Below are positions 43,163-62,093 of a stretch of 64,000 nt of DNA, piece by piece. Position 1 is the stretch's first letter. Every line of letters starts with the position of its first letter. Source of the DNA: Candidatus Binatia bacterium (GTDB lineage Bacteria > Desulfobacterota > Binatia > DP-6); NCBI GenBank assembly GCA_036009625.1, contig DASYLJ010000166.1:1703-65702 (forward strand). Reading direction: 5' to 3'. The notes under the pieces are model-generated. The model was not told the DNA's origin and did no database searches. It worked only from the letters and a program-made list of their open reading frames with translations. The position numbers and the translations under genes were made by a program.

Positions 43163-43217
43163 GTGCCGAGGAGGGGATTCGAACCCCTACGCCCTTTCGG
43201 ACTGCGGATTTTGAGTC
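43163..43217 (-). repeat. att core copy: orphan 3' half of tRNA-Leu(CAA)
   Basis: gtgccgaggaggggattcgaacccctacgccctttcggactgcggattttgagtc is identical to 62039-62093 except for one T-loop base (43178 t versus 62054 a). It lacks the tRNA 5' half: the sequence diverges immediately after gagtc. Confidence 0.9.
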
Positions 43218-43310
43218 TGAATACGGCGCTCTCAGTGCAACGAATGCAACTCATCATCGAGGAAGTTCGCTCAGTTATGTCGCAATCGAATGCCTGATTG
43301 TTGCATGCGG

Positions 43311-43340
43311 TTGCATGACAATCCGCTCAAAACCCACACA
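43311..43340 (+). repeat. 30-bp direct repeat, candidate integrase arm-type site (int-proximal)
   Basis: ttgcatgacaatccgctcaaaacccacaca matches 61948-61977 at 29/30 positions. It lies 93 nt inside the left att core, upstream of int. Confidence 0.6.
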
Positions 43341-43435
43341 TAAACCCTTTAGCGACAATGGGTTGACGATACGTATGCCGCGAAATGTCAGTAAATCGAT
43401 TGTGCGGGTTAATCCGCTCTGCCATATCGAGGTGC

Positions 43436-44539
43436 ATGACGGCACGAGCGTATGGGGACGGACGGGTCATTCTGCGAGGCAGCGTTTACCACTACGACTT
43501 CTGGTTGGAGGGGAAGAACTATCGGGGGAGCGCGAAGACGGGCGACCGAGACGCGGCCGAGCGCTACCTGGCGCGGGAGCGAGAGAGAGCGCACAAGGTC
43601 GACTACCTCGCCCCCCGAACGAAGACGGTGACTCTCGAAACCCTGCGCGAGATTGTTGCCGCCGACTACAAGCGAAAAGAGAACAAGTCCCTCCGCCGGG
43701 TCGCCGAGTGTTACGCCCGCCTCGCGGATGTCTTCTCCAGGGTGAAGGCCACTCAGATAACAACCGAACGGTTGGAGCGCTACACCGCTGGACGCATCGA
43801 CGAGAAGGCCAAGCCCGCGACGATTAACTATGAACTGGCGTTGCTTCGTCGCGGCTTCCGACTTGCCGTGCGCAACAAGCGCCTCCCCCAAGCCGCTATA
43901 CCGTTCTTTCCCATGCTCGCGGTCAACAACGTCCGAACCGGATTCATCGATGCGGCCGACTTCGACGCCTTGATTGCGGAGCTACGCACCAAGAGGCCCG
44001 TCATCGCGGACGCGTGCGAATTTGCCTATGCGACGTTGGCACGCCGAGAGAACACCTTGGGGGCGCAGTGGACGTGGTTCGATTTGGATATCGTGAAGGG
44101 CCAGGTCGTCGGCGGATGCGTCAGGATACCTGGGGTGGAAACCAAGAACGGGAGTCCCCTCGACATTCCCTTGGGACCGGCGGTGCTCCCGGTCATTCAG
44201 CGCCGCTGGGTCGAGCGCATTCCCGAGTGCCCCTATGTGTTCCATCGTCAGGGGAAGCGCATCACGCATTTTAAGCAGCGGTGGAGCGCGGCGTGCGAGG
44301 CCATCGGCTTTCCTGGGCTCCTATTCCACGACTTCCGTCGCTCCGGGGCGAGGAATCTCCGGAGGGCGGGGGTGCCGGAAACCGTCATTATGGCAATGGG
44401 CGGATGGAAGACCCGCGCCATGTTCATTCGATACGGCATCGTAGACACGGAGGAGTTGTCGGACGCGCAGGCGCAACTTGCTACCTTCCTCGTTGCGGCG
44501 CGTGCGAAGGGCCGCAAGGTCGTCTCAGCCCGCCTTTAG
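43436..44539 (+). CDS. int: tyrosine-type site-specific recombinase (phage integrase family)
   Basis: The C-terminal catalytic region is LLFHDFRRSGARNLRRAGVPETVIMAMGGWKTRAMFIRYGIV (HxxR...Y). The N-terminal SAM-like region is GKNYRGSAKTGDRDAAERYL. The ATG at 43436 has a gaggtg SD; an alternative ATG is at 43385. Confidence 0.9.
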   Translation: MTARAYGDGRVILRGSVYHYDFWLEGKNYRGSAKTGDRDAAERYLARERERAHKVDYLAPRTKTVTLETLREIVAADYKRKENKSLRRVAECYARLADVFSRVKATQITTERLERYTAGRIDEKAKPATINYELALLRRGFRLAVRNKRLPQAAIPFFPMLAVNNVRTGFIDAADFDALIAELRTKRPVIADACEFAYATLARRENTLGAQWTWFDLDIVKGQVVGGCVRIPGVETKNGSPLDIPLGPAVLPVIQRRWVERIPECPYVFHRQGKRITHFKQRWSAACEAIGFPGLLFHDFRRSGARNLRRAGVPETVIMAMGGWKTRAMFIRYGIVDTEELSDAQAQLATFLVAARAKGRKVVSARL

Positions 44540-44800
44540 GAACCTCTCAAACTTCGACTCCACGACCATCGTGCGTCCACCAATGGTCTTAAAAAAGGGG
44601 AGGGTGCCCGCATGGGCATGCCGTCCCAGGGTCGAGCGATGCACCCCCATCCGCCGGGCGGCTTCAGCGATACTTAAACAGCGCTCAGGACGTGGAGCGG
44701 GCGGGATGGGGTGTTCCTCTCGATGTCCTGCCAACTGCGCCTGAGCGACCGCCCCAAGGGCTATCAACTGGCGTAGTGTCGTCTCGTCGAAGGACGGCAC
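44525..44800 (-). CDS. xis: excisionase-family / MerR-like helix-turn-helix DNA-binding protein
   Basis: LSIAEAARRMGVHRSTLGRHAHAGTLPFFKTIGGRTMVVESKFERFL resembles the excisionase-type HTH (TIGR01764-like). It is convergent with and overlaps the 3' end of int by 15 nt. Confidence 0.7.
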   Translation of the reverse strand: MPSFDETTLRQLIALGAVAQAQLAGHREEHPIPPAPRPERCLSIAEAARRMGVHRSTLGRHAHAGTLPFFKTIGGRTMVVESKFERFLKAG

Positions 44801-44899
44801 GTCTTCGATTGCTGGCAGGGTAAGCGAACGCGGTTGGGGCTGGGCTCGCGTTAAGCCCGGATGTGTTGGCGATGCATCTTGGGTACCTCCGATACCATC

Positions 44900-45388
44900 C
44901 TAGACGGCCTGCGGAACGCGGCGCCGGCCTTGGGGGAACGGACTGCCCGTCGAGCGCGGGGGCAGGTCCATGGCGCGGGCGACGGAGGGCAGTCGCACGG
45001 GTATGGCTGCTACGCCATCGCCCATCACGACCGCGTAAAAGTGACCCTCCGGGGGCGGCGTCGCGTCGTTGCGCGCGGGGTCGGTCAAGTTCTTCAGGAT
45101 GGGCCACGTAATCGGCAAGAGGAGACACCGCTTGCCGTCGCGCACCTCATAGACGCTGTCGACGTCGGCTTGCACCTCACGCGCCAGCACCAACGTCGTA
45201 TCCTGATACCCCGTGCCGAGGGAGGTATCCGGGGGCACAACCGCCACCCCAATCACGTCCTCGTCTTCCTCGCGGGCCTCCACGAACATCGCGACCATGC
45301 GGGGGAACCACGTCTTCAACGTCTTCTGCGACCACGCCTTGCGAGGGTTCCTGGTCCGCTCCGCTGCCCGCCGCTGTCGCCGGTTCAT
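44900..45388 (-). CDS. hypothetical protein (element leftward operon)
   Basis: Trimmed to the ATG at 45386-45388 (MNRRQRRAAERTRNPRKAWSQKTLKTWFPRMVAMFVEAREEDEDV...). Coding-like composition. No family recognised. Confidence 0.5.
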   Translation of the reverse strand: MNRRQRRAAERTRNPRKAWSQKTLKTWFPRMVAMFVEAREEDEDVIGVAVVPPDTSLGTGYQDTTLVLAREVQADVDSVYEVRDGKRCLLLPITWPILKNLTDPARNDATPPPEGHFYAVVMGDGVAAIPVRLPSVARAMDLPPRSTGSPFPQGRRRVPQAV

Positions 45389-45417
45389 CCCACCACCATC
45401 CCGCCGTCGGAGGGACC

Positions 45418-45762
45418 TTACTGAATCGAGGGCATCGGCCAGCCGATGACCCCCACCAACTCCCAGCGGTCGAACACGAGTTGAACGAACCGGTTCGGCA
45501 CCTCCAGGGGAAGGTACGGATGCCGATTGCGGAAACTGCTGGGGAACCACGTCGCAGTCCACATTTCCGGACCCTTCAACTGCATGTGAACCAGCTCACC
45601 GTCCTCCATGTTGGTTTCAACGACCTGGGGCACCGCGCCGTGAAACACGCTCTGCCCCCCCGCGACCAACTCGGCCATGTCATCGTACATCTCGGCCAGC
45701 TCCGGGTGCGTGTGAATATCTTCCGCATCCACCTCGACGTACTGCACTTCGTCCATTTGCAT
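45418..45762 (-). CDS. hypothetical acidic protein
   Basis: Start at the ATG at 45760-45762 (MQMDEVQYVEVDAEDIHTHPELAEMYDDMAELVAGGQ...). No family recognised. Confidence 0.5.
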   Translation of the reverse strand: MQMDEVQYVEVDAEDIHTHPELAEMYDDMAELVAGGQSVFHGAVPQVVETNMEDGELVHMQLKGPEMWTATWFPSSFRNRHPYLPLEVPNRFVQLVFDRWELVGVIGWPMPSIQ

Positions 45763-46014
45763 CCCCTTTCGACGTCGGGCCTCCTCAGACGCCCGACGCT
45801 CTGCGATTGCTCCGCACCACCCCACTCCTCTCCATGGGCGCGACCCAATCAGAGGCCTTCCCGCTCGTCAAGTAGGGTCATTTCTGGCTGTCAGCGCCTA
45901 TTTCTTTAGCGCATCATAGCGTCTAGGTGCGAGACTACGCGGCACGTCGAGTCGCGGAGGTGGCTCCAAAGTCAGCTATTGCCCGCGGCTCGCAATAGCT
46001 TTCTGGTGCTACAC

Positions 46015-46440
46015 CTACGGGACTTCGAACAGGACATGCGAGGGGAACGCCCCTGGGACGAAGGGCAGGCCGCACACCGCATCACCCCCGACGAATACGG
46101 GTCCAGGCCATCGCCGGGGGAATGCCGTCATGCCGGCCGGGAGGACGCACCGCCCGCCATGGGCGAATCCACATCCGGTGGACCACTCGCCATCACGGGC
46201 GCGACCGCTGGCGCCTCCTTCCAGCGTTCCGTCCAACTGGCACTCGCCCCTTATGCGCCCCCGGACGACGCCGCCGGTACATGTCTCCGGCTTGCACCGA
46301 AAATGCCCCTTGAACTTCCCGTACCGGAATCGAACGCGAAACGTCGCCACCCCACCAGCAAAGATGCCCGGGCGGCGCACGGCCTCCGCCGTCCCTGCGG
46401 AGAGGAGCACCAGAGCAAGCAAAGCCAGCGCGGTCCGCAT
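46015..46440 (-). CDS. hypothetical secreted protein
   Basis: Start at the ATG at 46438-46440 gives signal peptide MRTALALLALVLLSAGTAEA. The mature part has 6 Cys (FRCKPETCTGG...GECQLDG...TGCGF...GRCVL...AVCGL). Confidence 0.55.
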   Translation of the reverse strand: MRTALALLALVLLSAGTAEAVRRPGIFAGGVATFRVRFRYGKFKGHFRCKPETCTGGVVRGRIRGECQLDGTLEGGASGRARDGEWSTGCGFAHGGRCVLPAGMTAFPRRWPGPVFVGGDAVCGLPFVPGAFPSHVLFEVP

Positions 46441-46473
46441 CGAGCGCACGCTATCAATGTCGTTCGCCACTGC

Positions 46474-46668
46474 TCAACACCTTTTGTTCACCACGCAGAA
46501 ATGAGCCCGGTAGCGGACGTTTCGCACGTAGATTCGCCCCCGCGTGTCGGGTTCGGTTTCGACGACAATCGGGATGCCGTGCCGGAGGTAGAGATGTACC
46601 ACCGGGCGGCCACATCGCACGCACGGGTCGGCGGTGAACGGCGGACTCAGGGGCTTGGGTGCCATCAT
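46474..46668 (-). CDS. small hypothetical protein
   Basis: 64-aa ORF. Its ATG overlaps the stop of the upstream ORF (ATGA at 46665-46668), which suggests translational coupling. Confidence 0.45.
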   Translation of the reverse strand: MMAPKPLSPPFTADPCVRCGRPVVHLYLRHGIPIVVETEPDTRGRIYVRNVRYRAHFCVVNKRC

Positions 46669-46979
46669 CGAGCGACCCGGCGAGGAGGAGTGCAGGAATG
46701 CACCTCCTCGGCTTTAACCATCGCGGCATCGACCGCGAGGCCGACGATATCGAGGATGGCGGGTAGGACCGACGTCGGGAGGACGATGGTGGTTGGTGTA
46801 ACGCCTTGGGGCGTCGTGAAGGTCACGGTGAGGTTGGGGCCGCCTGATGCGGGGTCCCAGGTGAGGTCGGCTCGTGCGCCCGTGCTGTACGTGACGGTCG
46901 CGGAATAGGAACTGATGTCGAGGAGCATACTCGTGCCTTCAGTGGATGGTTTCGGCGTCGCCGTCATCGCACCACTCAC
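46665..46979 (-). CDS. small hypothetical protein
   Basis: 104-aa ORF. The GTG at 46977-46979 overlaps the primase-helicase stop (GTGA); an alternative ATG is at 46967. Confidence 0.45.
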   Translation of the reverse strand: MSGAMTATPKPSTEGTSMLLDISSYSATVTYSTGARADLTWDPASGGPNLTVTFTTPQGVTPTTIVLPTSVLPAILDIVGLAVDAAMVKAEEVHSCTPPRRVAR

Positions 46980-48820
46980 AGAGCGGGAACGACGGGTCGC
47001 GGCGGTTGAAATTGCAGTCTGGACAGAGGGGGCCGTTCGGAGGTCCGTCCGGTCCCGTGAGACTGATGTCCAAGATACGTCTCGGGATGCGACTCACGTC
47101 TCACCCCTAAGGGGTGTGAGACGTGTGAGACGCTCAATCCAACCGTCTCATGCGTCTCATGAGACGCATATGAGACGCGAGACGCATTGTGGGGGAGTGA
47201 CCACACCATGGCTTTGGGCGGTCCGGTGTGGAGCGCGCCGAGTTCCTTGGCCGCGCGGTTTACGGTCGCACGGGAGCCGCCAATCGCGGCTTGGACCTGG
47301 CTCGTGGTGCGCCCTTCTGGATGGGTGCGGAGGAGGTCACGGAACCTGCCCGCGTAGCCTACGGGCTCCCGGTCAACGGGCAGGCCATCGACGAGAACGG
47401 CCGACGAGATTTCCTCACCGCGACTATTCGCCCCAAGCTCTTGCGTGAAGAGCTTCAGACCGATGGCAGGGAACCCCTCCGCGTTCTTCTGTTTGGTGCA
47501 AGTGATGGTGACGTTGCGGTCGGCCTTCGTCACCTTGAACATGGTGTCAGCCGCGCCCGCCAGCGCGGTCGAGCCGCGAAGTTCACCGCTCTTCCCCGCG
47601 TGGTGGACGATAAGAACTGAGGCCCCGTATTGCTTCCGCAGGGTGTCCGCGGCGGCGACCGCCACGCCCATATCCGTTGCGCCGTTCTCCTCTCCTCCGA
47701 CCATCGAGCGCGCCAACGTATCCACGACGATGAGTTGCGGCGGTACCGGGAGGTCGGCAACTGCATCCACGATGCCTGACACGTCCCCCGTGTCGAGGAG
47801 ATTAACGGCGTCCCGCACGAACGCGACGTTTGCCTTCGCGATGCCGTGCCTCCGCTTCCACGCGTTCACGCGGAGCTTGATACCGCCCATGCCCTCGCCC
47901 GCGATGTAGACCACCGGCCCTTGCGCGACTGCGTGACCGTGCCAGGGAATCCCCGACCCGATGCAGAGCGCCATATCGAGCGCGACGAACGATTTCCCGA
48001 CGCCCGGCGCACCGAAGCACACCCCAAAGCTATCCCGCGCGAGGATGTTACCGACCAACGGCTCCGGCTCGGGTGTCGACTCCATGCCGTCATCCCAGAG
48101 CAGGCGATACTTGCACGGCTTGCTGACCAGGGCGCGTAGCTCGGCATCTGTGCAGAGACAGTTCGCCGCATCGCCGGCCTTTGGCGCATCTGGCCACACG
48201 ACAATGCGCGACCGACCACCCAGTGCCGTGAGCCTGTCGGCAATCCTACCCATATGCTTGCGGCCGGGTTCATCGTTGTCAGGCCACAGCGCCACGTCGA
48301 AGCCCAACAGCACCCGCAGGGAGTCGTCATTGGGAATCGATGCCGCGCCCGTTACCGTTCCCACCGCGAGGACGCCCCGTGCGGTTAAGGCGTCGCAGGC
48401 GGGCTCGCCCTCCGTGACAACCACCGTTGCCCCAGGTCGTGCGGTGGCGAGCGCTTCCGCGTGGTAGAGCGGCAGAGCGGTCGTGACCGTGCCGGTAGGC
48501 CAGTAGACTTTCTTGTGGATATTGGGGTTGGCGTAGTCGAGCCGCGTGTGCAGGACGGTGCCCACGGGCCATAGCCGCTCGCGAATAGGGTTATCGAGCG
48601 CGTCGGGGGACGCTAAGTCCTTCCAATCGCCGCCCCATGCCTTAAGAATGGCGGGGTATCGACACCCCGCTCGACAGAAGAGCGTAATGCCCCCATTGTT
48701 ACCTGCATCGATTTTGAGGGATGGCGTCGTGTCGTCATGGGCAGGACACAGGACCACGTACCCGTCCCCTTCCGGCTTGGCGCCTTGGAATGTTGCGGCG
48801 ATTTGTGCTACAGTCTTCAT
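46976..48820 (-). CDS. bifunctional primase (zinc-finger + Toprim) / RepA-DnaB-like helicase (AAA_25-type)
   Basis: MKTVAQIAATFQGAKPEGDGYVVLCPAHDDTTPSLKI...FCRAGC (zinc finger). VVVTEGEPACDAL...ALWPDNDEPGRKH (Toprim E...DxD). FGAPGVGKSFVALDMAL (Walker A). LIVVDTLAR (Walker B-like). SVLIVHHAGK. Confidence 0.85.
   Translation of the reverse strand: MKTVAQIAATFQGAKPEGDGYVVLCPAHDDTTPSLKIDAGNNGGITLFCRAGCRYPAILKAWGGDWKDLASPDALDNPIRERLWPVGTVLHTRLDYANPNIHKKVYWPTGTVTTALPLYHAEALATARPGATVVVTEGEPACDALTARGVLAVGTVTGAASIPNDDSLRVLLGFDVALWPDNDEPGRKHMGRIADRLTALGGRSRIVVWPDAPKAGDAANCLCTDAELRALVSKPCKYRLLWDDGMESTPEPEPLVGNILARDSFGVCFGAPGVGKSFVALDMALCIGSGIPWHGHAVAQGPVVYIAGEGMGGIKLRVNAWKRRHGIAKANVAFVRDAVNLLDTGDVSGIVDAVADLPVPPQLIVVDTLARSMVGGEENGATDMGVAVAAADTLRKQYGASVLIVHHAGKSGELRGSTALAGAADTMFKVTKADRNVTITCTKQKNAEGFPAIGLKLFTQELGANSRGEEISSAVLVDGLPVDREPVGYAGRFRDLLRTHPEGRTTSQVQAAIGGSRATVNRAAKELGALHTGPPKAMVWSLPHNASRVSYASHETHETVGLSVSHVSHPLGVRRESHPETYLGHQSHGTGRTSERPPLSRLQFQPPRPVVPAL
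47078..47185. repeat. iteron cluster: at least 9 copies of (T)GAGACG(C)/CGTCTC(A) in both orientations, candidate replication origin
   Basis: cgtctc at 47078 and 47097. tgagacg at 47117 and 47126. cgtctca at 47144 and 47153 (the 8-mer gcgtctca begins at 47152). tgagacgc at 47160 and 47171. gagacgc at 47179. The cluster includes the perfect 16-bp palindrome gcgtctcatgagacgc (47152-47167). It lies within the 3' tail of the primase-helicase ORF. Confidence 0.6.
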
Positions 48821-48939
48821 TGTAAGTATCTCACTTGCCCGACTTCGTCCTCGGGCCTCTCTCATCCGCTGACTACCTCGTGGCGCCCTCCAGCCCGCGG
48901 GGTAGTTGAGTTTTGAGCGTTATGGGTTGATGTGTGGGG

Positions 48940-49353
48940 CTACGATTGAGGCGCGTCGAGGCAGTAGAGGTCATAGAGCGCCGCGCGGATGTCCTTGTAG
49001 GTCGGGGGCCGTAGGGTGACACCGAAGCGCATGCGTGAATGCGTGACCCGCTCGCCACACTCCAACCGCTTTCGGTCGAATCGGTGACAGCGGTTCGGGT
49101 CGGGAAAGCCCTCGACTAGGATGAGCTTCGGGGTGCGCGCCACAATCCGATGCGCGTCCCCATCGGCCTCGAAGACGTGGGACCCACGACCCATCGAGGC
49201 AGATGCCTTCCGCCGAAGCCGCGCCTCTGCGTCGAGCACTCGCGCACAGAGCCTCCGCTCTAGCGCTAGCTCCTCGGGCGTCATGCTCTGCGAAAGGGCC
49301 AGCCCTTCAGCGGGGTCGGACCTCTCGGACGTGTGGTCGGGTGTCACTGGCAT
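48940..49353 (-). CDS. hypothetical protein
   Basis: 137-aa ORF that overlaps the stop of the upstream RHH gene by 10 nt. No family recognised. Confidence 0.5.
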   Translation of the reverse strand: MPVTPDHTSERSDPAEGLALSQSMTPEELALERRLCARVLDAEARLRRKASASMGRGSHVFEADGDAHRIVARTPKLILVEGFPDPNRCHRFDRKRLECGERVTHSRMRFGVTLRPPTYKDIRAALYDLYCLDAPQS

Positions 49354-49541
49354 CGCTCCTCGTTGGGGTTTGGGGTCAGGGTTTCCGCCACGAGACGGGC
49401 CACGGCTTCTCGAATCAGGACACTCGGCGGCTGCCCCCGCCGCATCGATGCGGCCTGGAGTAGCGCGAGGTCTTGAGGCAGGAGGCCAAAGGACGTCGTC
49501 ACAAGGCGGGGCTTATTGCTGTAGCGTGCGTGAGTGTTCAT
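49344..49541 (-). CDS. ribbon-helix-helix (CopG/Arc-like) DNA-binding protein, candidate element regulator
   Basis: 65 aa. RLVTTSFGLLPQDLALLQAASMRRGQPPSVLIREAVARLV fits the beta-strand, helix, helix RHH pattern. It is the first gene of the leftward operon. Confidence 0.6.
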   Translation of the reverse strand: MNTHARYSNKPRLVTTSFGLLPQDLALLQAASMRRGQPPSVLIREAVARLVAETLTPNPNEERCQ

Positions 49542-49563
49542 TGCTTGTTAACTTAATCATGGG

Positions 49564-49642
49564 CGGATTCGCGGGTGACAGTAAAGGCCCATGAATCGGC
49601 CCGCCCGTGCCGGGCGCAGTTGACTGTCACCCCCCGAATCCG
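49564..49642. promoter_or_regulatory. long imperfect inverted repeat in the divergent control region
   Basis: cggattcgcgggtgacagt (49564-49582) pairs with actgtcaccccccgaatccg (49623-49642). The perfect half-blocks are cggattcg and gggtgacagt, separated by a 40-nt spacer containing a small gcccg/cgggc hairpin. It lies between the RHH gene (minus strand) and the 49749 gene (plus strand). Confidence 0.5.
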
Positions 49643-49748
49643 GAACCATGATGTTTCGCGGATGACGTTGGCGCGGAAGGGGTATCGGTGGGAGCATGCG
49701 GACGCCTGCGGTTCGCAGCGCGACTCCGTGTCCTGCTAACAGGGCGCC

Positions 49749-50381: not shown

Positions 50382-50397
50382 CGCACTCCACCTGAAG

Positions 50398-50646
50398 GTG
50401 CAGCCGACATCTTCACCCCTCGATGCCTCGATGCTACGAGGGCGCATGCCGTTGCGCGTGACTGCCATGCCGGGCCAGAACGACCCGACCCCGTGCAAGG
50501 TCTGCCGCGACGTCAACGAAACGTCCGTCGTCCTCTTCGGCTTTGTGTGGTGCTACCGCCGACCCTGCGGACACAACGCGCACATCAATGGCGGCGGCGA
50601 CCCACGCGCGGCACTGCGCATCACGCCCTGTACCTGTATTGAGTAG
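50398..50646 (+). CDS. possible small Cys/His-rich (zinc-ribbon-like) protein
   Basis: 82-aa ORF with CKVC...(20 residues)...CYRRPCGHNAH...CTC. The start is uncertain and there is no obvious SD. Confidence 0.3.
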   Translation: MQPTSSPLDASMLRGRMPLRVTAMPGQNDPTPCKVCRDVNETSVVLFGFVWCYRRPCGHNAHINGGGDPRAALRITPCTCIE

Positions 50647-50777
50647 GCGCATGCTCCTCCCCACCCAGCTCGCCACTCTGATACTCGTCGTCGTGTGCGT
50701 CGTCGCGTACGTGTGAACCGACGTGACCACGCGAAGGACGGACCGCCGACAATGACGTTGCCACCCGTGGAGGGCTC

Positions 50778-51068: not shown

Positions 51069-51090
51069 GTCCTGCCCCGTTCCACCGGCC

Positions 51091-55667: not shown

Positions 55668-55669
55668 GA

Positions 55670-56557
55670 ATGACCATGCTCGTGCGACTCGTCATCACTG
55701 CTCTTGTGACTTTCCTCGCGGCGCAGTCTGCCCACGCGCTCGACATCACGACGTGCGGCACGGTCGTGCCTGAGCGGACCGTGGGCGTCCTCGTCGCTGA
55801 CCTTGAGTGTATCGGCTCTGGTCCGTCAATAACGGTGGAACGAGCCGCATCGCTGAACCTCGATGGCCACACACTTCGCGTTCTCAATCCTCCGCCTCCT
55901 CCCTTCGTGACCACGGCCGTGGGTGTCCAGTGCAGCGGTCCTGGTCCGTGCGTGATTCAGGGACCTGGGACGATAGAGGCCGACCATGTTGCGGTAAACC
56001 TCTTGGAGCGCGCCGCCCTACGCATGTCGGCCGGCGTAACTCTGCGGGCGCCTGTCGGTATCTACGCGTTGAGAGAGCGTCTCGCCGTTCGTCTGTCCGA
56101 CGTCGTCATCGAGTATGGTGCGTCGGCTATCTATGCGGCCGCAGGCGGCGACTCCCGCTATCGATATGCACCTCGGGTGCTCGTGGAGGATGTGCTGCTC
56201 ACGTTTGCGCCGGAACTTGGTTCGCGCAACTACACGACGCTCTCGGCCAAAACGCTGAAGGGCACGGGGCTAACGTTTGTGGGGCCCCGCGAGGAAACGG
56301 GGAATCGGGCGATAGAGGCCAAGGCCGTATCTCTAGTCAACCTGACGATGGTGGATGTGACGGCCTTGGGATGCGGCGTGACCGCTGAACGTGTGACGCT
56401 TCGGGATTCCGTGGTCACGGGGAACTACGAATTTCCGTCGCGGCCATGTGATATCGCGGCTATCCGGATGCCGCGTCTCATAGGCACAACGTGCGACCAC
56501 AGTGCCCGGCAAACTCCTCCGTTTCCGTTCGACTGGGATGTCTGCCTCAGCGACTAG
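55670..56557 (+). CDS. hypothetical secreted protein (8 Cys), possibly beta-helical
   Basis: The ATG at 55670 follows aggaa. Signal peptide MTMLVRLVITALVTFLAAQSAHA. The beta-rich periodicity looks repetitive. No family recognised. Confidence 0.6.
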   Translation: MTMLVRLVITALVTFLAAQSAHALDITTCGTVVPERTVGVLVADLECIGSGPSITVERAASLNLDGHTLRVLNPPPPPFVTTAVGVQCSGPGPCVIQGPGTIEADHVAVNLLERAALRMSAGVTLRAPVGIYALRERLAVRLSDVVIEYGASAIYAAAGGDSRYRYAPRVLVEDVLLTFAPELGSRNYTTLSAKTLKGTGLTFVGPREETGNRAIEAKAVSLVNLTMVDVTALGCGVTAERVTLRDSVVTGNYEFPSRPCDIAAIRMPRLIGTTCDHSARQTPPFPFDWDVCLSD

Positions 56558-56681
56558 AGTGCATGGCGCCTCCTGTGGCGAGGCACCCGCCCGTTGTGCG
56601 CGATGGCGGCCACACACCATCGGGGGGACGGCGCCCGCACTTCTAGGCCCCGAGTTGTCGGAAACGAGCGCCGCCCTGGGA

Positions 56682-56909
56682 TTACCCGTCGAGTTTCCTC
56701 AGTAGCTCTAGAACGAAGGGGCCAGCGTGGGCGGGGTCGCGCCAGACGTTGTCGCGCCGCAGGTAGAGCAAAAGCGACCGCACGACGTCGGCCAGGACGT
56801 CGTGTGATGGGACGTTCGGGCGACGTGGTGCCGGCGTTGGCGGGAAGTCGCGGACGGTCCGCTCGATGAATCCGGTATCCTTCGTGAGGAATTTGAGCTT
56901 ACTGAGCAT
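56682..56909 (-). CDS. small hypothetical protein
   Basis: 75-aa ORF that overlaps the stop of the upstream 394-aa gene by 11 nt. It is the last gene of the leftward packaging-side operon. Confidence 0.45.
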   Translation of the reverse strand: MLSKLKFLTKDTGFIERTVRDFPPTPAPRRPNVPSHDVLADVVRSLLLYLRRDNVWRDPAHAGPFVLELLRKLDG

Positions 56910-58083
56910 TGGTCATTCTCTTGATGACGTCATCGGCGACGAGACGGCGGTTAGCGTTGGTATCGGGTAGATTCCGTGCGGCGAGGCACTCCCGGAAGAG
57001 CGCGGGCACGTCGAAAGGTTCGGCGCACTGCACGACGTCACCAGCGGGTGGGTAGCTCACGAGGTCGGGACGCATCTTTGCGACCGCCGCATGGGCTTGG
57101 CGGGAATCGCCGTCACGGAACGTCAGGGCATTCTTGCAACGGTAGAGTAAGACCGCCTCAGCAAACGTCCGCGCCGACGCAACGGACGCGCCCTCGCTCG
57201 CAATGCGTTCAAGAGCGACTTGGCGCATGGCTGCAAAACGGTCCGTGGGCTCGCTGAGTCGGAGCTTCTGTGCCTTCGCGATGGCTTCGTACCTGTCGAA
57301 GTTCCGCCGTTCCCCAGCCGACACGTTGTCGCCGAGTGTGAGCGCGACATCCACGTCTGCACTCGCGTACAAGCCTGGCTTGAATGCGGAGGTGTCACCA
57401 GTGATGCCCGCGCTCGTGAACCCTCCCGATGCGTGCGACGCCTTTCGATACTCTGCATACGTGTTGGGCGTGCCTGAGGTGCGCGTCCCAAAGCGCTGCC
57501 ACGGGGCAGGGTCGGCATGCGGCACCGTCGGCGTGCGGGTGTATTCGAGATACCGTGCCCGCGCCGTCTCGGGGTCGCTGAACGCGTCGAAGGGCTCGCT
57601 CGATTGAATGCATGCGGGCCCGATGACTTCGGGGGCTTTCCGCCCCACGATGGGCGCGACGGCGCGCGGTTTCGCAGCGGCCAAGATGTCGTCGGCGCTC
57701 AAGCCTTGGACAAGGTCGGGGCTCTCGTTCGTCACCGCGACGACGGCCTTGTAGCGGTCGGTGGGGATGTCCTGGTCTAGCCCTAGCTCCTGAATCTTTG
57801 AGTCAACGGCGGCGAGGAACGTTTGATAGAAGTTGGTGTCTGGGGGCGTTGGCATTTCGGTCGGTGTTTCCAAAGTTGACGTTGGTTCGGGGTCGGGTTG
57901 CACGTGTGCGCCGGGCCAGCCCGACTTATCCATCGAGGCAAGCGAGCCAGGGGCGAGTGAGGGAATGTCCACGCCACCCGCCATGAGTTCATCCGGCGTC
58001 CACGCGGCGCTCTCTTCGGGGTCGGAGGGTTTCGGGTAGACGGGCGCGACCATCATTAACGGGAGCGGAGCAACGCGTTTCAT
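56899..58083 (-). CDS. hypothetical protein downstream of HNH-terminase (function unknown; not recognisably portal or capsid)
   Basis: The ATG at 58081-58083 overlaps the HNH stop (ATGA). 394 aa with a Pro/Asp/Glu-rich N-terminal third. No motif recognised. Confidence 0.6.
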   Translation of the reverse strand: MKRVAPLPLMMVAPVYPKPSDPEESAAWTPDELMAGGVDIPSLAPGSLASMDKSGWPGAHVQPDPEPTSTLETPTEMPTPPDTNFYQTFLAAVDSKIQELGLDQDIPTDRYKAVVAVTNESPDLVQGLSADDILAAAKPRAVAPIVGRKAPEVIGPACIQSSEPFDAFSDPETARARYLEYTRTPTVPHADPAPWQRFGTRTSGTPNTYAEYRKASHASGGFTSAGITGDTSAFKPGLYASADVDVALTLGDNVSAGERRNFDRYEAIAKAQKLRLSEPTDRFAAMRQVALERIASEGASVASARTFAEAVLLYRCKNALTFRDGDSRQAHAAVAKMRPDLVSYPPAGDVVQCAEPFDVPALFRECLAARNLPDTNANRRLVADDVIKRMTNAQ

Positions 58084-58385
58084 TGCTGGGCCTCGTGGTG
58101 GGCAGGGGAAATGCAACCGCGATACCCGCACGTGTTCTTGAGCCGCTTGGGCATGCGGCCGGTGTCGAGCGCGAAGGCCACGCGATGGGCGAAATGGACG
58201 ACGTCACCCACCTTGAACGCCGGGTATCCGCGACGGTGCCAGCCGCCCCAAAGGATGTGGCCATTCGCCTGCGGACGCGCGAACGCGTGCAATCGGGCGC
58301 GCACGGCGTCAGAGATAGAAGAACCCCCGCCCGCCGTGGAACTAGCAGGGACGACGACGGACGGGGATGGCCTAGACGTAACCAT
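58080..58385 (-). CDS. HNH endonuclease-like protein (packaging-associated type)
   Basis: NGHILWGGWHRRGYPAFKVGDVVHFAHRVAFALDTGRMPKRLKNTCGYRGCISPAHH resembles the GCW.W.G....GYG.......AHR.....G.ip.g..v.H.C....C.NP.HL pattern. It lies adjacent to the terminase genes. Confidence 0.6.
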   Translation of the reverse strand: MVTSRPSPSVVVPASSTAGGGSSISDAVRARLHAFARPQANGHILWGGWHRRGYPAFKVGDVVHFAHRVAFALDTGRMPKRLKNTCGYRGCISPAHHEAQQ

Positions 58386-58494
58386 ACGGAAGATTATTCC
58401 GTGGATACGTCCGGGCGGTCAAACTAGCTAGTGCGACGTCGGCCGCTCCGCAACAGCGCGGTCAGCCACCCCTCATATGAGTCTTCAAACGCAT

Positions 58495-60144
58495 TCATGC
58501 GATGAGCCTTCCGGGTATCCCAAACTCTTCATCGTGCCGGCTCTGGAAGCGGTCGCGGATGAGTTGTTCGTCTTGGTGCGTGGAGATAATCGGCCCGTCA
58601 TCGGACAGGGAGAGCTTGAGCCGTGTTGCATCGCGGCCCAGGTTCCGTGCCTCGATGATGGCGCCGCAGGGTTGGGACGCGAGAAGCAACGCGCCACAGC
58701 AGGAATTCGCGATGTCGTCATGAAGCCCACGGCGCACCCCCACGGATTCACGGCCGGTCTTCGATAGACTCCGCTCCAGACTCCCGAGTTGCGCGAGCAG
58801 CTTGGGAAGGTTCGGAAGCAGCACGCGCCCGCTCGTGAAGAGCGGAAGGGCGTTGGCCATAATGTCGGCCTTCGAGCCCAACTTCGTGTCGTCCGCTGCG
58901 GTCCCCGTGACGACGTACTCAATCCCGAACTTGGCGAAGGTCTGCGGGGTGTGCGTGCCGCCCCACCGGTCGCCGTAGCAACGAGGTACGCCGTATTCCG
59001 TGAGCAACTGACAAAAGCGCTCTATGGTCTGCTCGGCATCGAAGGGCGGCAACACTTCCCGCACCACGTCGAGCACCACCGTCCCGTCGTCCTCCGCGTG
59101 CGCGATGGCAAGGCATGCGCTGTCACTTGTCCCCCCGCTGCCATCGAAGAATCCGTGGTACTGGACGCCGTATCGCGGGGGCAGTTCGTCTTGTCTGCTC
59201 TGGTCTACCGACGCTTCAAGTAGGTCGTGGGAGTAGAGCCGGGCGACGTCGCTTCGAAACTCGGCGTACCACTCCGCTCTCCCTGCGTGCGGGTCGAGGG
59301 CAATGGCCGCCTCGATGACGTCGTCGGGAATCGTGCCGTTCATGAGTTTCGACGGCGATTGCCATACGAGCTTGCTCCCTGGCTTCCCGAAGTGGTCACG
59401 GTAGGCTTCCCACAACGCGCCACTGCGACCGTAGGGAGAGGAGAGACAGAGGAGCATGCCCTTCGTTGTGGCGAGCGCAGGACGAATGGCCTTTATCAAC
59501 TCATGGTCTGGCTCTGCGGATTCGGAGCCACGCATCATTGCCAATTCGTCAAGACAGCACGCAATCAACGTGTGCCCTCTGATTTTGCGGAAGCTCGCGG
59601 TATGGACGGCGATACGGATGCCGTTGTCGAGCGTGACCGAGTTGGCCGTTTCGCGGATGACCTTGTCGGAGAGCAATGGCGAGAGGCGCAATAAGCCCTT
59701 CACGTAGTCGCAAATGACGGCGGCTTGGGACCGGTCGGGTGCGATGATGGCGCACACCCCACGCTCACCAGGACTCAGGACGGTCGAGTAGTCAACGAAG
59801 CATGCGAGGAACACGGCGAGGATTGCCGTTGCGTAGGACTTGCCCGCACGTCGGCCGCACACCAACCACGACTCTTTCGCTTGCTCGGTGGGTGGGTCGA
59901 CGCGGTTTGTGCAGGCGCGATAGGTCGCGAGCATGTCTTGCGTCATGGGCAACCCGAACAACGACGCGAAGTAGCTGCGCCACGCGGAGAAGTCGCCCCG
60001 CTTCACGGCCAAGCCCAAGAGCGCGTCATCGTCGAGCGCGTCGAGGATAGTGACCCCAGAAAAAATATTGGCGCGTGGGACCGTATGGCCCGCGAGGGAT
60101 GGGACTCCGGCGTCTAACTCCGTTGGCGGGGGGGTCTTACTCAC
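58495..60144 (-). CDS. terL: phage terminase large subunit
   Basis: Walker A is WLVCGRRAGKSY. Walker B-like is LIACCLDELA. The C-terminal nuclease region is YHGFFDGSGGTSDSACLAIAH...GLHDDIANS. The start is proposed at the GTG at 60142-60144, overlapping the TerS-like stop; the track ORF extends to 60249. Confidence 0.8.
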   Translation of the reverse strand: MSKTPPPTELDAGVPSLAGHTVPRANIFSGVTILDALDDDALLGLAVKRGDFSAWRSYFASLFGLPMTQDMLATYRACTNRVDPPTEQAKESWLVCGRRAGKSYATAILAVFLACFVDYSTVLSPGERGVCAIIAPDRSQAAVICDYVKGLLRLSPLLSDKVIRETANSVTLDNGIRIAVHTASFRKIRGHTLIACCLDELAMMRGSESAEPDHELIKAIRPALATTKGMLLCLSSPYGRSGALWEAYRDHFGKPGSKLVWQSPSKLMNGTIPDDVIEAAIALDPHAGRAEWYAEFRSDVARLYSHDLLEASVDQSRQDELPPRYGVQYHGFFDGSGGTSDSACLAIAHAEDDGTVVLDVVREVLPPFDAEQTIERFCQLLTEYGVPRCYGDRWGGTHTPQTFAKFGIEYVVTGTAADDTKLGSKADIMANALPLFTSGRVLLPNLPKLLAQLGSLERSLSKTGRESVGVRRGLHDDIANSCCGALLLASQPCGAIIEARNLGRDATRLKLSLSDDGPIISTHQDEQLIRDRFQSRHDEEFGIPGRLIA

Positions 60145-60535
60145 GGGCGGTCCTGACCTTGGCCGCCAAGTACGCCTCAAGCCCACCCCGCTCTTCCGCC
60201 ACGCGGTCGAGGCCCAACTGTCCGAGGAGTCTGGCCAGCCCATCCGCAATGGTCTGCCGGCTACGCACGATGGGCAGGATTTCCCGCTTCCGCTTATTGA
60301 CGATGGACGCCTGTCCGAGGAGCCAGGAATCCACTTGGTCGAGCAACCACCGTTGGCGGCACGCTAGCTCTACGAGGGTGCTACGCTGCGCCGATAGGTC
60401 ATCCCCCAGGTCGGCGACAAGCTCGGCTCGCCACAGGGCCAGGGCGTCAGCGGCGGGGCCTGTCAGGGGCAGTCCTGCGCGGCCCTTCAGGGCAGGGGAT
60501 AGACCGTGCTGGGTGCGCTCGCGATATCTCGACAC
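60137..60535 (-). CDS. putative terminase small subunit
   Basis: 132 aa with a GTG start at 60533-60535. It lies immediately upstream of and overlaps terL. The protein is helical and basic (P27-like pattern ...ALWRAELVADLGDDLSAQRSTLVELACRQRWLLD...). The assignment rests mainly on position. Confidence 0.5.
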   Translation of the reverse strand: MSRYRERTQHGLSPALKGRAGLPLTGPAADALALWRAELVADLGDDLSAQRSTLVELACRQRWLLDQVDSWLLGQASIVNKRKREILPIVRSRQTIADGLARLLGQLGLDRVAEERGGLEAYLAAKVRTARE

Positions 60536-60803
60536 GCCACTAGAATAGCATGATAGCGCGACGCAGTCCCGTCAGGTTCCGGGCGCCTTGAGGAACGCCG
60601 AAGCTTAATCCGCACAACATCCACTCAGGCTGGGAAGGCGTTGCGGGACAGGGGTTTGCGAGCACGGCGCGGATTAGATATCCGCTGCGTTTCCGTGGGG
60701 CAGGGCGCGCGTCACGGACGATTGTGGCAGGGCGGCTACGCGGCCCAGTGAATCCCGAATAGGGTTCGCTCCATCCGCGTGCTTTCGCTAGATAGTCTCG
60801 GCG

Positions 60804-61388
60804 ATGACTGACGAGAACTGGTTTTCACTGGCCAACTCGCTGATAGCGGCTGCGGCGGGTGTTGGCGGCGTGGCAGTTGGTGCGTTCATGACGGCATGGG
60901 AGCAGAGACGGGAGGCGAGGCGTGCTTTCGTGCGTCAGCAGCTGAGTGAGTTTTATTCGCCGATGCTCGCGCGTCGTGGGCAACTCATTGCTGCCCTCGT
61001 TGTGGAAGGTGCGGCGGGCGGCTCCGGCGGGGAGGGTGCGGGTGGACCGCTCGACCGGACGGCCATGGCGGCCCGCTGGCTCTACGAGAGCGCTCCGGCC
61101 CGATTCGACGCGGCCGTCTATCCACTTCTGGTGTCGCTGTTGGACGCGTTCATTGCAAATCTCTGGTTGGCCCAGTCGAGCACGCGCAAGCATCTCGAAG
61201 CGGTTGCTTTACAGGTCGCGACGATTCAGAGCGACCAGGCAAGAGGGGGTCCGAGACGAGGGGGGCGCGTACACTTGGACCATCTCTACGACTTTCTGGC
61301 GGATATCGATGAGCAGTTCGTGGTGCTTCAAACGGCTCTCAGGGATAGTGAATACGACGGGTGGCGGTGGCCATGGATAGCACGATAG
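60804..61388 (+). CDS. membrane-anchored hypothetical protein, tandem paralog 1
   Basis: N-terminal TM segment LANSLIAAAAGVGGVAVGAFMTAW. It shares FVRQQLSEFYSPMLA and NLWLAQSSTRKHLEAV blocks with the next gene. Confidence 0.6.
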   Translation: MTDENWFSLANSLIAAAAGVGGVAVGAFMTAWEQRREARRAFVRQQLSEFYSPMLARRGQLIAALVVEGAAGGSGGEGAGGPLDRTAMAARWLYESAPARFDAAVYPLLVSLLDAFIANLWLAQSSTRKHLEAVALQVATIQSDQARGGPRRGGRVHLDHLYDFLADIDEQFVVLQTALRDSEYDGWRWPWIAR

Positions 61389-62038
61389 GTGCCGCGCTCA
61401 TTGGCGCCGTAGTCGCCGTGATTGTAGCCCTGGTGGGCTTTGGTGGCGTGGCGCTTGGTTCGTGGGCGACGATTCGAGACTTGAAAGAGCAGAGGCGGTT
61501 GGAGTTCGTCCGCACGCAACTCAGCGAGTTGTATTCGCCCCTTCTCGCGTTCGGGCCCCAGCTTGGCGTCGCGGAGCAAATCTATCTTAGCATGCGCGAC
61601 CTCGGCCTTGCTCCGGCTGGCGTGGGTGGGACGACCGGCGAGGTGTACGCGGAGCGATACGTGGCCACGGTGCTTCCGCTCTATCAAGACATGCTGGCCG
61701 TCTTCAGGAAGGGTCTATGGCTTGCGGAGCCCAGTACGCGGGCGTGTTTCGCAAAGCTCGTGGGCCAAGTGAGCCTCTTAGAGCAGGCCCTGGCCGCCTA
61801 TGCCCCGCGCGTGGTGATTGAAGAGGTGTGCTCGGTCGCGCACAACGCTGTGCTGCGGGATGACATCGAATCTCACTTCGGTCGGCTGCAAGCGCTCCTG
61901 CGACCCGCGCCCCCGTCCATCATGCGCCGCATGCAACAAAGGGTGTGTTGCATGACAATCCGCTCAACACCCACACAAGGGGGCAAATCCGCGCAGGGTG
62001 GGGCAGGGAGCGACACGCGGAAACGCATGGGGGAGTAG
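61361..62038 (+). CDS. membrane-anchored hypothetical protein, tandem paralog 2
   Basis: N-terminal TM segment IGAALIGAVVAVIVALVGFGGVALGSW. It carries FVRTQLSELYSPLLA and GLWLAEPSTRACFAKLV. An alternative ATG is at 61373. The ORF reads through the 30-bp arm repeat and stops 1 nt before the tRNA 3' end. Confidence 0.55.
   Translation: MAVAMDSTIGAALIGAVVAVIVALVGFGGVALGSWATIRDLKEQRRLEFVRTQLSELYSPLLAFGPQLGVAEQIYLSMRDLGLAPAGVGGTTGEVYAERYVATVLPLYQDMLAVFRKGLWLAEPSTRACFAKLVGQVSLLEQALAAYAPRVVIEEVCSVAHNAVLRDDIESHFGRLQALLRPAPPSIMRRMQQRVCCMTIRSTPTQGGKSAQGGAGSDTRKRMGE
61948..61977 (+). repeat. 30-bp direct repeat, candidate integrase arm-type site (tRNA-proximal)
   Basis: ttgcatgacaatccgctcaacacccacaca matches 43311-43340 at 29/30 positions. 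It lies 61 nt inside the right att core. Confidence 0.6.
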
Positions 62039-62093
62039 GTGCCGAGGAGGGGAATCGAACCCCTACGCCCTTTCGGACTGCGGATTTTGAGTC
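62039..62093 (-). repeat. att core copy within the intact tRNA-Leu gene
   Basis: 54/55 identical to 43163-43217. It covers the tRNA from the last bases of the 5' strand of the anticodon stem through the anticodon loop to the discriminator base, plus one 3' base. Confidence 0.9.

Follow-up and report, generated by a model that had tools for sequence, protein, structure and literature searches.

A candidate phage-satellite-like integrative island with its own terminase in the tRNA-Leu(CAA) gene of a Candidatus Binatia bacterium

The window analysed here, a stretch of 64,000 nucleotides from an uncultured Candidatus Binatia bacterium, holds a single tRNA gene, an intact tRNA-Leu(CAA) (boundary at 62038 or 62040 in the ARAGORN and Rfam calls), and the 3' part of this gene recurs at the far end of an island of about 18.9 kb (43163-62093; element unit size, 18,876 bp):

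62038-62123, minus strand: intact tRNA-Leu(CAA) (ARAGORN; Rfam RF00005, 58.2 bits), positions 31-85 of which are the second att core copy (62039-62093).
43163-43217, no strand assigned: displaced 3' part of tRNA-Leu, the att core at the distal junction, 54/55 identical to 62039-62093.

The repeat finder recovered the 55-nt direct repeat of the original prediction together with its single T-loop substitution (TTCGAAT in the left copy, TTCGATT in the tRNA), and ARAGORN and Rfam agree that the left copy lacks the tRNA 5' half. The repeat begins with the last 2 nt of the 5' anticodon-stem strand, takes in the entire anticodon loop, and spans the variable arm, the T arm, the 3' acceptor strand and the discriminator plus one extra base. 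It is not a chance match, because two of its sub-patterns (20-22 nt, 3 mismatches allowed) are present solely at the two cores, with 0.00 expected in shuffles. This identity block from the anticodon stem-loop to the tRNA 3' end bears out the predicted placement in the anticodon-loop sublocation class of tRNA-targeting integrases, a class reportedly described by Williams in 2002.

Base composition changes at the same places. GC content is 0.633 between the cores (43218-62038) and 0.703 in the host flank (1-41500), and the drop of ~7 points is abrupt and coincides with the two repeat copies; the values of 1-kb windows from the two regions do not overlap, as the element reaches at most 0.658 and the host falls to no less than 0.677. 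The lower GC than in the flanks, near half A+T at the left end, had been predicted as well (0.523 GC at 43150-43449). It might be argued that nothing mobile lies here, but rather a native region beside a tRNA gene, in which a fragment of the tRNA arose by chance or by duplication. An empty site is not shown, and the immediate flanks of the element are also intermediate in GC, both of which would suit this idea. However, a repeat with zero chance expectation, a GC step that matches the repeat copies, the integrase, Xis, primase and terminase genes inside, and relatives of the large terminase (TerL) that have unrelated genomic surroundings in other phyla make it scarcely credible. An integrative element in tRNA-Leu(CAA) is supported by every sequence-level prediction (repeat, GC step, int/Xis and phage-type genes), and identical element junctions are present in two metagenome samples.

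The genes and sites for recombination lie at the two ends:

43385-44539, plus strand: tyrosine integrase, 384 aa (PF00589, 1e-11; phrog_1, 2.4e-47).
44525-44800, minus strand: Xis/AlpA-like HTH_17 protein, 91 aa (PF12728 HTH_17, 1.5e-10, 41.6 bits; cutoff 27 bits).
43300-43340, plus strand: arm-type repeat cluster at the left core, GTTGCATG twice and then GACAATCCGCTCAAAACCCACACA (repeat finder, motif counts, alignment).
61930-61977, plus strand: arm-type repeat cluster at the right core, GTTGCATG once inverted and once direct, plus the 31-nt copy.
60597-60627, plus strand: third, diverged copy (65%) of the arm motif, in the intergenic region from which the terminase operon and the gene at 60804 diverge.

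These profile matches substantiate the tyrosine integrase and the Xis-like HTH protein that had been proposed. The integrase gene, 168 nt from one core copy, encodes a complete catalytic set as read from its motifs (R220/221, K254, H315, R318, W341 and Y350), and the Xis-like gene is convergent with it and overlaps its end. The integrase has no PDB match, is at most 44% identical, over short stretches, to sequences in IMG/VR, and is without the Arm-DNA-bind_3 N-terminal domain that the P4-type integrases of related islands have. The window contains four GTTGCATG octamers, every one of them no more than ~150 nt from one or the other core, as are both copies of a 31-nt direct repeat (43310-43340 and 61947-61977; 30/31 identical), and AATCCGCNCAA occurs three times against 0.06 expected. 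In a circular attP, these repeats would flank the core on both sides, like arm-type sites.

The layout suggests that recombination by the tyrosine integrase took place between the tRNA gene and an attP core whose sequence is identical to it between the anticodon stem-loop and the 3' end. The element would have supplied the sequence that makes the tRNA functional again, and the part displaced in this way would have ended up at the far junction; the core at 43163-43217 probably represents the 3' half that the host tRNA had before integration. Strand exchange may have occurred in the anticodon-loop region, and the T-loop mismatch between the cores fits a crossover 5' of the mismatch. The element may also be excisable, as judged from the intact int, Xis and cores: with the arm-type repeats as their sites of action, the integrase and the Xis-like protein (HTH_17) could release a circle. 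An empty site, an attP junction and a circular form were each absent from the sequence collections searched, which leaves mobility as a prediction; no close relative keeping synteny at the tRNA-Leu locus was found there either.

Next to the recombination genes lie a replication gene and several small orphans:

46976-48865, minus strand: primase-helicase (PF13481, 4e-38; phrog_906, 5e-53).
48940-49541, minus strand: 137-aa orphan and 65-aa RHH-like protein (RHH_1, E=0.017; GC3 bias).
44900-45825, minus strand: two orphan ORFs of 220 aa and 135 aa, starts uncertain (GC3 bias), without Pfam, PHROG or PADLOC match.

The proposed Toprim-helicase proves to be a primase-helicase, with an N-terminal Zn-finger, the Toprim motifs TEGE and DNDEPG and an AAA_25 helicase domain; it also matches the primase profiles phrog_6088, phrog_239, phrog_849 and phrog_47. 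If the element circularizes, this enzyme could copy the circle. The 137-aa orphan and the RHH-like protein, encoded upstream of the primase gene, form a putative regulator pair; the RHH assignment of the latter keeps a weak match to RHH_1, which falls under the Pfam cutoff.

The element also has a terminase operon, in which the genes follow one another in the order TerS-like, TerL, HNH_3-like remnant, 385-aa orphan and 75-aa orphan:

60137-60535, minus strand: TerS-like protein, directly upstream of TerL (phrog_1496, E=0.033; family alignment).
58495-60081, minus strand: intact TerL, start somewhere in 60012-60081 (phrog_2, 4e-23; T4 gp17 structures, 2e-4; 469 homologues).
58080-58385, minus strand: HNH_3-like small protein, with a counterpart after TerL in L067, a related island (39% identity to 1605-1832).
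56682-58056, minus strand: 385-aa and 75-aa orphans at the end of the operon, without Pfam or PHROG match.

TerL, as predicted, is confirmed by its profile match, and it keeps Walker A (GRRAGKS), Walker B (DE) and the Asp residues of the nuclease domain, all invariant alignment columns. For the predicted TerS-like protein, position and alignment with the products of genes upstream of TerL in five related islands argue for the assignment; its match to the 'terminase small subunit' profile phrog_1496 covers nearly the whole profile and is weak, and a single-sequence AF2 model consists of long helices only and is not informative. The HNH nuclease of the original prediction fares worse, as HMM support is absent (no Pfam match at E<=1) and sequence comparison shows KNTC in place of H-x-C, leaving an HNH_3-like remnant without the catalytic His. 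The 385-aa orphan, for which eight relatives were found among 1.84e9 representatives, is 46-50% identical to P0122; it is predicted to be all-alpha and partly disordered (AF2 model of helices only, pLDDT 54).

No capsid, portal, tail or lysis gene was detected with Pfam and PHROG in 30 scanned ORFs of the element; the element therefore cannot make virions, and a prophage as such was rejected in favor of a satellite-like island. As a control, PHROGs detected portal, major capsid protein, protease, tape-measure and hub genes beside related TerLs in at least 33 of 51 IMG/VR loci. A very divergent structural protein among the orphan ORFs is conceivable but unlikely. Taken further, this would make the element a complete small temperate virus with capsid proteins too divergent to recognize, as might be suggested by more than 20 ORFs without detectable homologue and a TerL that is ~26% identical to its closest counterpart in any isolated phage. 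We regard this as highly improbable, because PHROGs readily recognize the structural proteins of TerL-related phages, the terminase operon has no space for a set of portal, protease, capsid and connector, and only three orphans are of capsid or portal size: the all-alpha 385-aa protein and two (281 aa and 295 aa) with signal-peptide-like N-termini, one of them a beta-helix.

TerL relatives in cellular contigs point in the same direction, as all six that were examined (L060, L062 from Bradyrhizobium, L064, L065, L066 and L067) sit in islands without structural genes. These small islands combine a recombinase, a replication gene and TerS-TerL, frequently with defence cargo; the full order of integrase, replication gene, TerS-like and TerL is found in L060, L064, L065 and L066, and L060 terminates at a tRNA-Ser gene and has its int at the opposite end, the same arrangement as in the window. 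L067, a partial contig, shows only TerL, the HNH-like gene and the 385-aa homologue, kept as a block at 39-50% identity with different cargo, and this conservation of the block despite different cargo argues for purifying selection.

The main rival reading is that of a decayed prophage, a temperate phage of the order int, rep, TerS, TerL and structural genes that entered tRNA-Leu, later lost its head, tail and lysis modules, is now immobile or merely excisable, and retains terminase genes without function. TerL relatives also occur in complete (pro)phages, in some (L099, L081 and L100) with int, primase-helicase, TerS and TerL ordered as in the element and tail genes after them, so the islands could be prophage deletion derivatives; the HNH-like gene without catalytic His and the orphans that make up most ORFs would be expected of decay too. 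However, TerL keeps every invariant catalytic residue, its block is maintained in L067, and there is no damage to Int, Xis, the two cores or the arm repeats. Moreover, random decay would leave some portal, capsid or tail fragments, but neither the element nor the six related islands gave a tblastn match to any of 97 proteins, structural or adjacent to TerL, from viral contigs with a related TerL. We consider decay possible, if doubtful, and favor, with a probability of about 0.6, the reading of 43163-62093 as a phage-satellite-like integrative island carrying its own terminase. Because the intact TerS-like/TerL pair, the HNH_3-like protein and two conserved orphans have been kept without virion genes, the island's own terminase might load island DNA into procapsids of a postulated helper phage. 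A satellite TerL without its own portal must then dock on a foreign one, and no such family was found among the described satellites.

The remaining genes would be accessory cargo of this satellite-like island:

50778-51068, plus strand: homologue of the Imm53 immunity protein (PF15580, 1.6e-36).
52306-56557, plus strand: seven consecutive genes, the 295-aa orphan included, whose translations have signal-peptide-like N-termini; no PADLOC match.
54822-55667, plus strand: one of these seven, a right-handed beta-helix protein (Beta_helix, 2.9e-13; NosD, 7.7e-11).
60804-62038, plus strand: two paralogous orphans of 194 aa and 221 aa (33% identity, E 9e-13), the cargo nearest the tRNA, with N-terminal transmembrane-like segments and no Pfam, PHROG or PADLOC match.

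Five of the seven predicted secreted proteins are small and Cys-rich, among them two paralogues (52306-52704 and 52986-53423; 34% identity, E 2.5e-17). The related islands have defence-type genes beside TerL (HEPN, SMODS with SLATT, TIR and AAA_15/21 genes), with ThiF and Multi_ubiq also among their cargo, and known satellites interfere with helper packaging (PMC10085698). It would be tempting to infer that the terminase was co-opted for a non-packaging role, blocking phage packaging or serving as a nuclease/ATPase effector, in a defence or accessory island that is moved otherwise. This seems improbable, since 10 cargo and orphan proteins of the element have no PADLOC match, TerS-like and TerL stay an adjacent pair, which is a hallmark of a working packaging enzyme, and Pfam scans revealed no conjugation or mobilisation genes.

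To our knowledge, no satellites are known from Binatota, the host phylum, and the combination of TerS and TerL without capsid genes appears to match none of the described satellite families compared. PICIs (SaPIs and the EcCICFT073 type) resemble the element in a size of 10-20 kb, a tyrosine integrase at one end, a specific chromosomal att site, an excisionase/AlpA-type HTH protein, their own primase-replicase, a packaging gene of the small-terminase type, accessory cargo and the absence of tail, lysis and capsid genes. However, they encode no TerL and redirect that of the helper through TerS or Rpp (PMC10085698), whereas the element carries an intact TerL and has no recognised Stl/AlpA-type master-repressor module or capsid-remodelling gene. 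The cfPICIs, which need a helper only for some virion parts, do combine TerL, TerS and an HNH-type protein with int and primase (PMC10085698). What defines cfPICIs is a set of their own genes for major capsid, portal, protease, head-tail adaptor and connector, and the element has none of these; unlike them, it would need to steal whole procapsids, portal included. P4-like satellites share with the element, as read here, an integrase, a Toprim primase and helicase, integration in tRNA-Leu and dependence on helper capsids, but the element has no Psu, Delta, Sid, Ash/epsilon or cos-only strategy. P4 itself lacks terminase genes and relies on the terminase of P2. Taken simply as a tRNA island, the element is ordinary: as in other islands and prophages of the anticodon-loop class, of which P4-type and P22-type integrases are examples, element sequence restores an intact tRNA, the repeat extends from the anticodon stem-loop as far as the 3' end, the integrase adjoins the core and arm-type repeats flank it, and nothing is unusual except that the integrase has no close relative.

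The ~18.9-kb segment at 43163-62093 is almost certainly an element integrated in tRNA-Leu(CAA), the sole tRNA gene of the window (ARAGORN, Rfam), as an intact tRNA stands at one junction, a direct repeat of the tRNA 3' part at the other, and a change in base composition coincides with the repeats. The features on which the argument draws are the following.

41579-42685: ion channel, left flank gene
43385-44539, + strand: tyrosine integrase (PF00589, 1e-11; phrog_1, 2.4e-47)
44525-44800, - strand: HTH_17 protein of 91 aa with an excisionase/AlpA-type fold (1.5e-10, above the Pfam cutoff)
46976-48865, - strand: primase-helicase with N-terminal Zn-finger, Toprim domain and AAA_25 (4e-38)
52306-56557, + strand: seven consecutive genes with signal-peptide-like N-termini
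58080-58385, - strand: HNH-like gene downstream of TerL, resembling HNH_3 proteins
58495-60081, - strand: TerL (phrog_2, 4e-23; T4 gp17 structures, 2e-4)
60137-60535, - strand: TerS-like gene, by its position upstream of TerL and a small-terminase PHROG match (E=0.033)
62038-62123, - strand: tRNA-Leu(CAA) (ARAGORN; Rfam, 58.2 bits)
62571-63479: methyltransferase, right flank gene

The two copies of the 55-nt direct repeat returned by the repeat finder (43163-43217 and 62039-62093) are identical at 54/55 positions and correspond to tRNA positions 31-85, a stretch that begins with the last two 5' anticodon-stem bases, takes in the anticodon loop, variable arm, T arm and acceptor strand, and ends one base beyond the discriminator; the only difference between them is in the T-loop (left copy TTCGAAT, tRNA TTCGATT). 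Core sub-patterns of 20-22 nt, searched with up to three mismatches, were found at both cores only (expectation from shuffles, 0.00), and the same search gave no third, older core copy in the window. GC content is 0.633 between the core copies versus 0.703 in the left 41.5 kb, the GC values of 1-kb windows from element and host form separate ranges, and GC drops to 0.52 immediately inside the left junction. The original prediction had proposed the tRNA-Leu repeat with its T-loop substitution, a lower GC content than in the flanks, and an AT-rich left junction, and all of this is reproduced here, down to the coordinates of the repeat. The tRNA-Leu(CAA) island is thus real, precisely delimited and ordinary in its mode of integration.

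The integrase gene lies next to an att site, beginning at a distance of 168 nt from the left core, and its product carries the complete catalytic set R-K-H-R-H/W-Y, read from the sequence as R220/221, K254, H315, R318, W341 and Y350; the HTH_17 gene is convergent with it. The primase-helicase has the Toprim motifs TEGE and DNDEPG, in agreement with its PHROG primase matches, and is preceded on the same strand by genes for a 137-aa orphan and an RHH-like protein. Earlier assignments of a tyrosine integrase, an Xis-like HTH protein and a Toprim-helicase are therefore borne out by family matches and motifs, while for the proposed RHH protein only a weak resemblance stands (E=0.017, below the cutoff). 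An IMG/VR scan with the integrase gave short, weak matches only. No Pfam family for a relaxase, oriT, type IV coupling protein or type IV secretion system was found among the ORFs scanned, which sets the element apart from integrative conjugative or mobilisable elements.

The predicted attP junction reads ...GGGGGAGTAG + 55-nt core + TGAATACGGCGC..., and the predicted attB junction ...CAGCGGAGGCTGA + core + CGCCGCGTCTGCC.... Near the ends of the element lies a second, 31-nt direct repeat (43310-43340 and 61947-61977, 30/31 identical), in which the motif AATCCGCNCAA is embedded (three occurrences versus 0.06 expected); also, the octamer GTTGCATG occurs four times in the 64-kb window, each time within ~150 nt of one of the two cores. 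In a circularised element the 31-nt repeats would flank the core on both sides, as arm-type sites do, and we infer from this arrangement that they are candidate binding sites for the integrase or Xis. With att cores, candidate arm sites, int and xis all defined, excision is directly testable. A third, diverged copy of the arm motif (TTAATCCGCACAACATCCACTCA) is found at 60597-60627, some 1.4 kb away from the core, in the divergent promoter/intergenic region upstream of the terminase operon. The same region holds a short repeat, GTGGGGCAGGG.GCG (60695-60718), that occurs also at 61998-62021. The repeats at 60597-60627 and 60695-60718 may be regulatory binding sites. A promoter and terminator scan gave a signal no higher than chance.

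In two JGI metagenome contigs (samples 3300035667 and 3300041409), which overlap with the window at 100% identity, the element occupies the same site. These contigs were the only records returned by exact-protein look-ups of the methyltransferase and TerL, and the look-up of the integrase returned none. Neither the exact attB pattern, searched in metagenome contigs, nor the exact attP pattern, searched in viral contigs, had a match. With the ion channel of the left flank as query, the best matches in GTDB genomes and metagenomes reached at most 61% identity, none with tRNA synteny, and the closest relatives, at 86% and 66% identity, were reached via the nearby MlaE. In the two MlaE relatives with DNA, similarity stops after the Mla operon at window position 63506, and the tRNA is not present there; in the closest of them (L127), the similarity thus ends before the methyltransferase and tRNA. 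The first 1.4-1.7 kb on each side (41501-43162 and 62124-63480) are of intermediate GC content (~0.66), and the ion channel and methyltransferase have an island-like GC3 of 0.77 versus 0.88-0.93 in neighbouring host genes, so the whole neighbourhood of tRNA-Leu may be variable and hold earlier acquisitions. Elsewhere in the window, an AT-skew dip at 26-27 kb (-0.35), considered as a feature, was discarded because it is a polytopic membrane-protein gene (25965-27134), which a subtilisin-like protease gene adjoins (23965-25971, - strand).

What is unusual about the element is that it has a terminase that looks complete but no head genes. TerL keeps all residues that are invariant in an alignment of 24 homologues, including those of Walker A (GRRAGKS) and Walker B (DE) as well as the aspartates of the nuclease domain, which, together with the profile and structure matches, substantiates its original identification. 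The JGI call of this gene (505 aa, start 60012) omits a conserved N-terminal segment, TILDALDDDALLG, that can be aligned to homologues, and translation probably begins close to 60081. The protein encoded upstream aligns with the product of the gene directly preceding TerL in five related islands, and its match to the small-terminase PHROG is marginal yet spans nearly the full profile. We call it TerS-like on position and weak homology, which is as far as the earlier TerS-like assignment carries. Its AF2 model, built from a single sequence, consists of long helices only and is uninformative, and the family profile gave no significant match among PDB sequences.

Downstream of TerL, the predicted HNH nuclease is represented by an HNH-like protein. 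It has the motif WGGW...GYP...AHRVAF...C..GC..P.H, with N in place of the expected catalytic His; it ends prematurely and has no Pfam match even at E<=1, so an active HNH nuclease is not supported. It is followed by a 385-aa and a 75-aa orphan, the former identical to a protein that NCBI assigns to a 'Candidatus Binatia bacterium' MAG. The 385-aa protein has eight relatives among 1.84 billion representatives and none in an IMG/VR scan, and Pfam had no matches in its remote relatives or in the post-TerL ORFs of related islands. Its AF2 model from a two-sequence alignment (pLDDT 54) is all-helical with long disordered stretches; it is too poor for a fold search, and what it shows is at odds with an HK97 capsid or portal. 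The same gene order is kept in L067, a related island on a partial contig (TerL, 47% identity; HNH-like, 39%; 385-aa, 46-50%), despite a different cargo of TIR and AAA_15/21 genes. The TerL/HNH-like/385-aa block hence appears, from this conservation of order and sequence, to be under selection.

Thirty ORFs of the element were scanned against both Pfam and PHROGs, and five further small ORFs against one library. Capsid, portal, protease, connector, tail and lysis families were found in none of them, the sole exception being a weak tail-spike match (2.7e-5) of the secreted beta-helix protein; the major capsid, portal, tail and lysis genes of a complete tailed prophage are accordingly missing from this set. 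We consider this a meaningful absence, because PHROGs readily finds such genes beside related TerLs. An IMG/VR profile scan returned 58 loci, and in at least 33 of the 51 with clear TerL relatives that were analysed the TerL-adjacent genes were identifiable, with matches to portal (3.6e-74 to 5e-116) and major head protein (2.5e-80) and to protease, tape-measure protein and baseplate hub. Moreover, when the element and six related islands were searched by tblastn, with 97 proteins (structural, or encoded beside TerL) from viral contigs with related TerLs as queries, there were no matches.

TerL has at least 469 homologues at 42-49% identity, compared with only 26% to that of any isolated phage. 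An IMG/VR scan with this TerL alone gave no relatives, and the element as a whole had no megablast match in phage and plasmid collections. All six TerL homologues examined on cellular contigs lie in islands without structural genes, as follows.

L060: Int, AlpA, Toprim/AAA_25 primase-helicase, TerS-like, TerL, two small ORFs and cargo, ending at a tRNA-Ser
L060, 13003-17783: cargo of CbiA/AAA_31 + HEPN (RiboL-PSP), ThiF + Multi_ubiq and Xre-MbcA
L062 (Bradyrhizobium), 14223-15696: SMODS + SLATT_4 beside TerS-like and TerL
L064, L065 and L066: Int, various primases, TerS-like and TerL, then host genes
L067, 3017-9480: cargo of TIR_2 and AAA_15/21

A long direct repeat of the tRNA-Ser was not found in L060 at a seed length of 12. 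PHROGs assigned primases, one HNH endonuclease and excisionase-type regulators among 37 uncharacterised ORFs of these islands, and no head or tail families among them. The likeness of the six islands indicates that a TerS-like/TerL pair with a recombinase and a replication gene, and without virion genes, is a recurrent arrangement in which the recombinase and the replication gene can be swapped from island to island. Taken as a whole, the TerL lineage is also that of ordinary phages. Four IMG/VR loci with related TerLs (L072, L081, L099 and L113) have baseplate-hub and tape-measure genes no more than a few kb after TerS-TerL, and no recognisable portal/major-capsid cluster in between; they may represent another reduced or unusual architecture.

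We favor, with a probability of roughly 60%, the reading that the element is a phage-satellite-like island, which would be excised by Int and Xis and replicated by its own primase-helicase, and whose own terminase would load procapsids built by a helper phage. Its main rival, a prophage that has lost its structural genes, could descend from complete phages such as L099, in which int, primase, TerS and TerL are arranged as in the element. However, the intact TerL, the conservation of the TerL/HNH-like/385-aa block across elements with different cargo, and the lack of structural-gene debris in all seven islands speak against simple decay, and we regard this rival as rather unlikely.

The satellite-like island fully matches none of the classes with which we compared it (PMC10085698, PMC9618062 and the list of satellite classes in PMC12822802). 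It resembles PICIs in having int, an Xis-like HTH and an RHH-like protein, a primase-helicase and a TerS-like protein, and in lacking structural genes, although the RHH-like and TerS-like matches are weak and PICIs, which are not defined by a TerL, have none (PMC10085698). Besides TerS, TerL and HNH, cfPICIs, with 11 core components, have a capsid, portal, protease, head-tail adaptor and connector of their own (PMC10085698); the element shares TerL and, by weak matches, the TerS-like and HNH-like proteins, but has no capsid, portal, protease or connectors. P4-like elements are without a terminase, and the likeness ends with the integrase and Toprim/AAA_25 primase-helicase, as the set of Psu, Delta, Sid, AlpA and alpha primase-helicase is not present, and no element ORF had a PHROG or Pfam match to P4 capsid-size or transactivation genes. 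PICMIs, VEIMEs and tycheposons are reported to have small terminases at most. In the literature, incompletely covered, we found no description of satellites with TerS and TerL and no head genes, which is absence of evidence only.

The capsid-less TerS-like/TerL layout, recurrent in unrelated bacteria with defence cargo, suggests a packaging-hijack strategy, which would lie outside current satellite finders, since TerL is missing from PICI models, and those for cfPICIs need capsid genes. We tentatively raise the possibility that the element and the six islands form an undescribed satellite class with a complete terminase of its own (TerS, TerL and small accessory proteins) and no capsid or portal, in which the satellite motor would dock on the portal of the helper phage and fill stolen procapsids with satellite DNA. 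If true, this would be a hijack strategy between those of PICIs (TerS only) and cfPICIs (whole head), in a class that extends over widely separated phyla (Binatota, Bradyrhizobium and other soil bacteria), often ferrying defence systems. Large terminases of satellites acting on foreign portals would widen the transduction routes for defence and accessory genes, and could provide a natural system for studying terminase-portal specificity. Apart from its class, the element is a well-delimited, apparently intact mobile element of Binatota, an uncultured soil phylum for which, to our knowledge, no mobile elements or phages are known.

The cargo of the element includes Imm53 (1.6e-36), and PADLOC recognised no defence system among ten of its cargo and orphan proteins, with no match for any of the seven secreted proteins. 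The latter, encoded by the seven-gene run, comprise five small Cys-rich proteins, one NosD/beta-helix protein and one 295-aa orphan, a cargo that is unusual for a phage-like island. Two of the Cys-rich proteins are paralogues with 33-34% identity (52306-52704 and 52986-53423), as are two membrane-anchored orphans, also with 33-34% identity, whose genes adjoin the tRNA (60804-61388 and 61373-62038).
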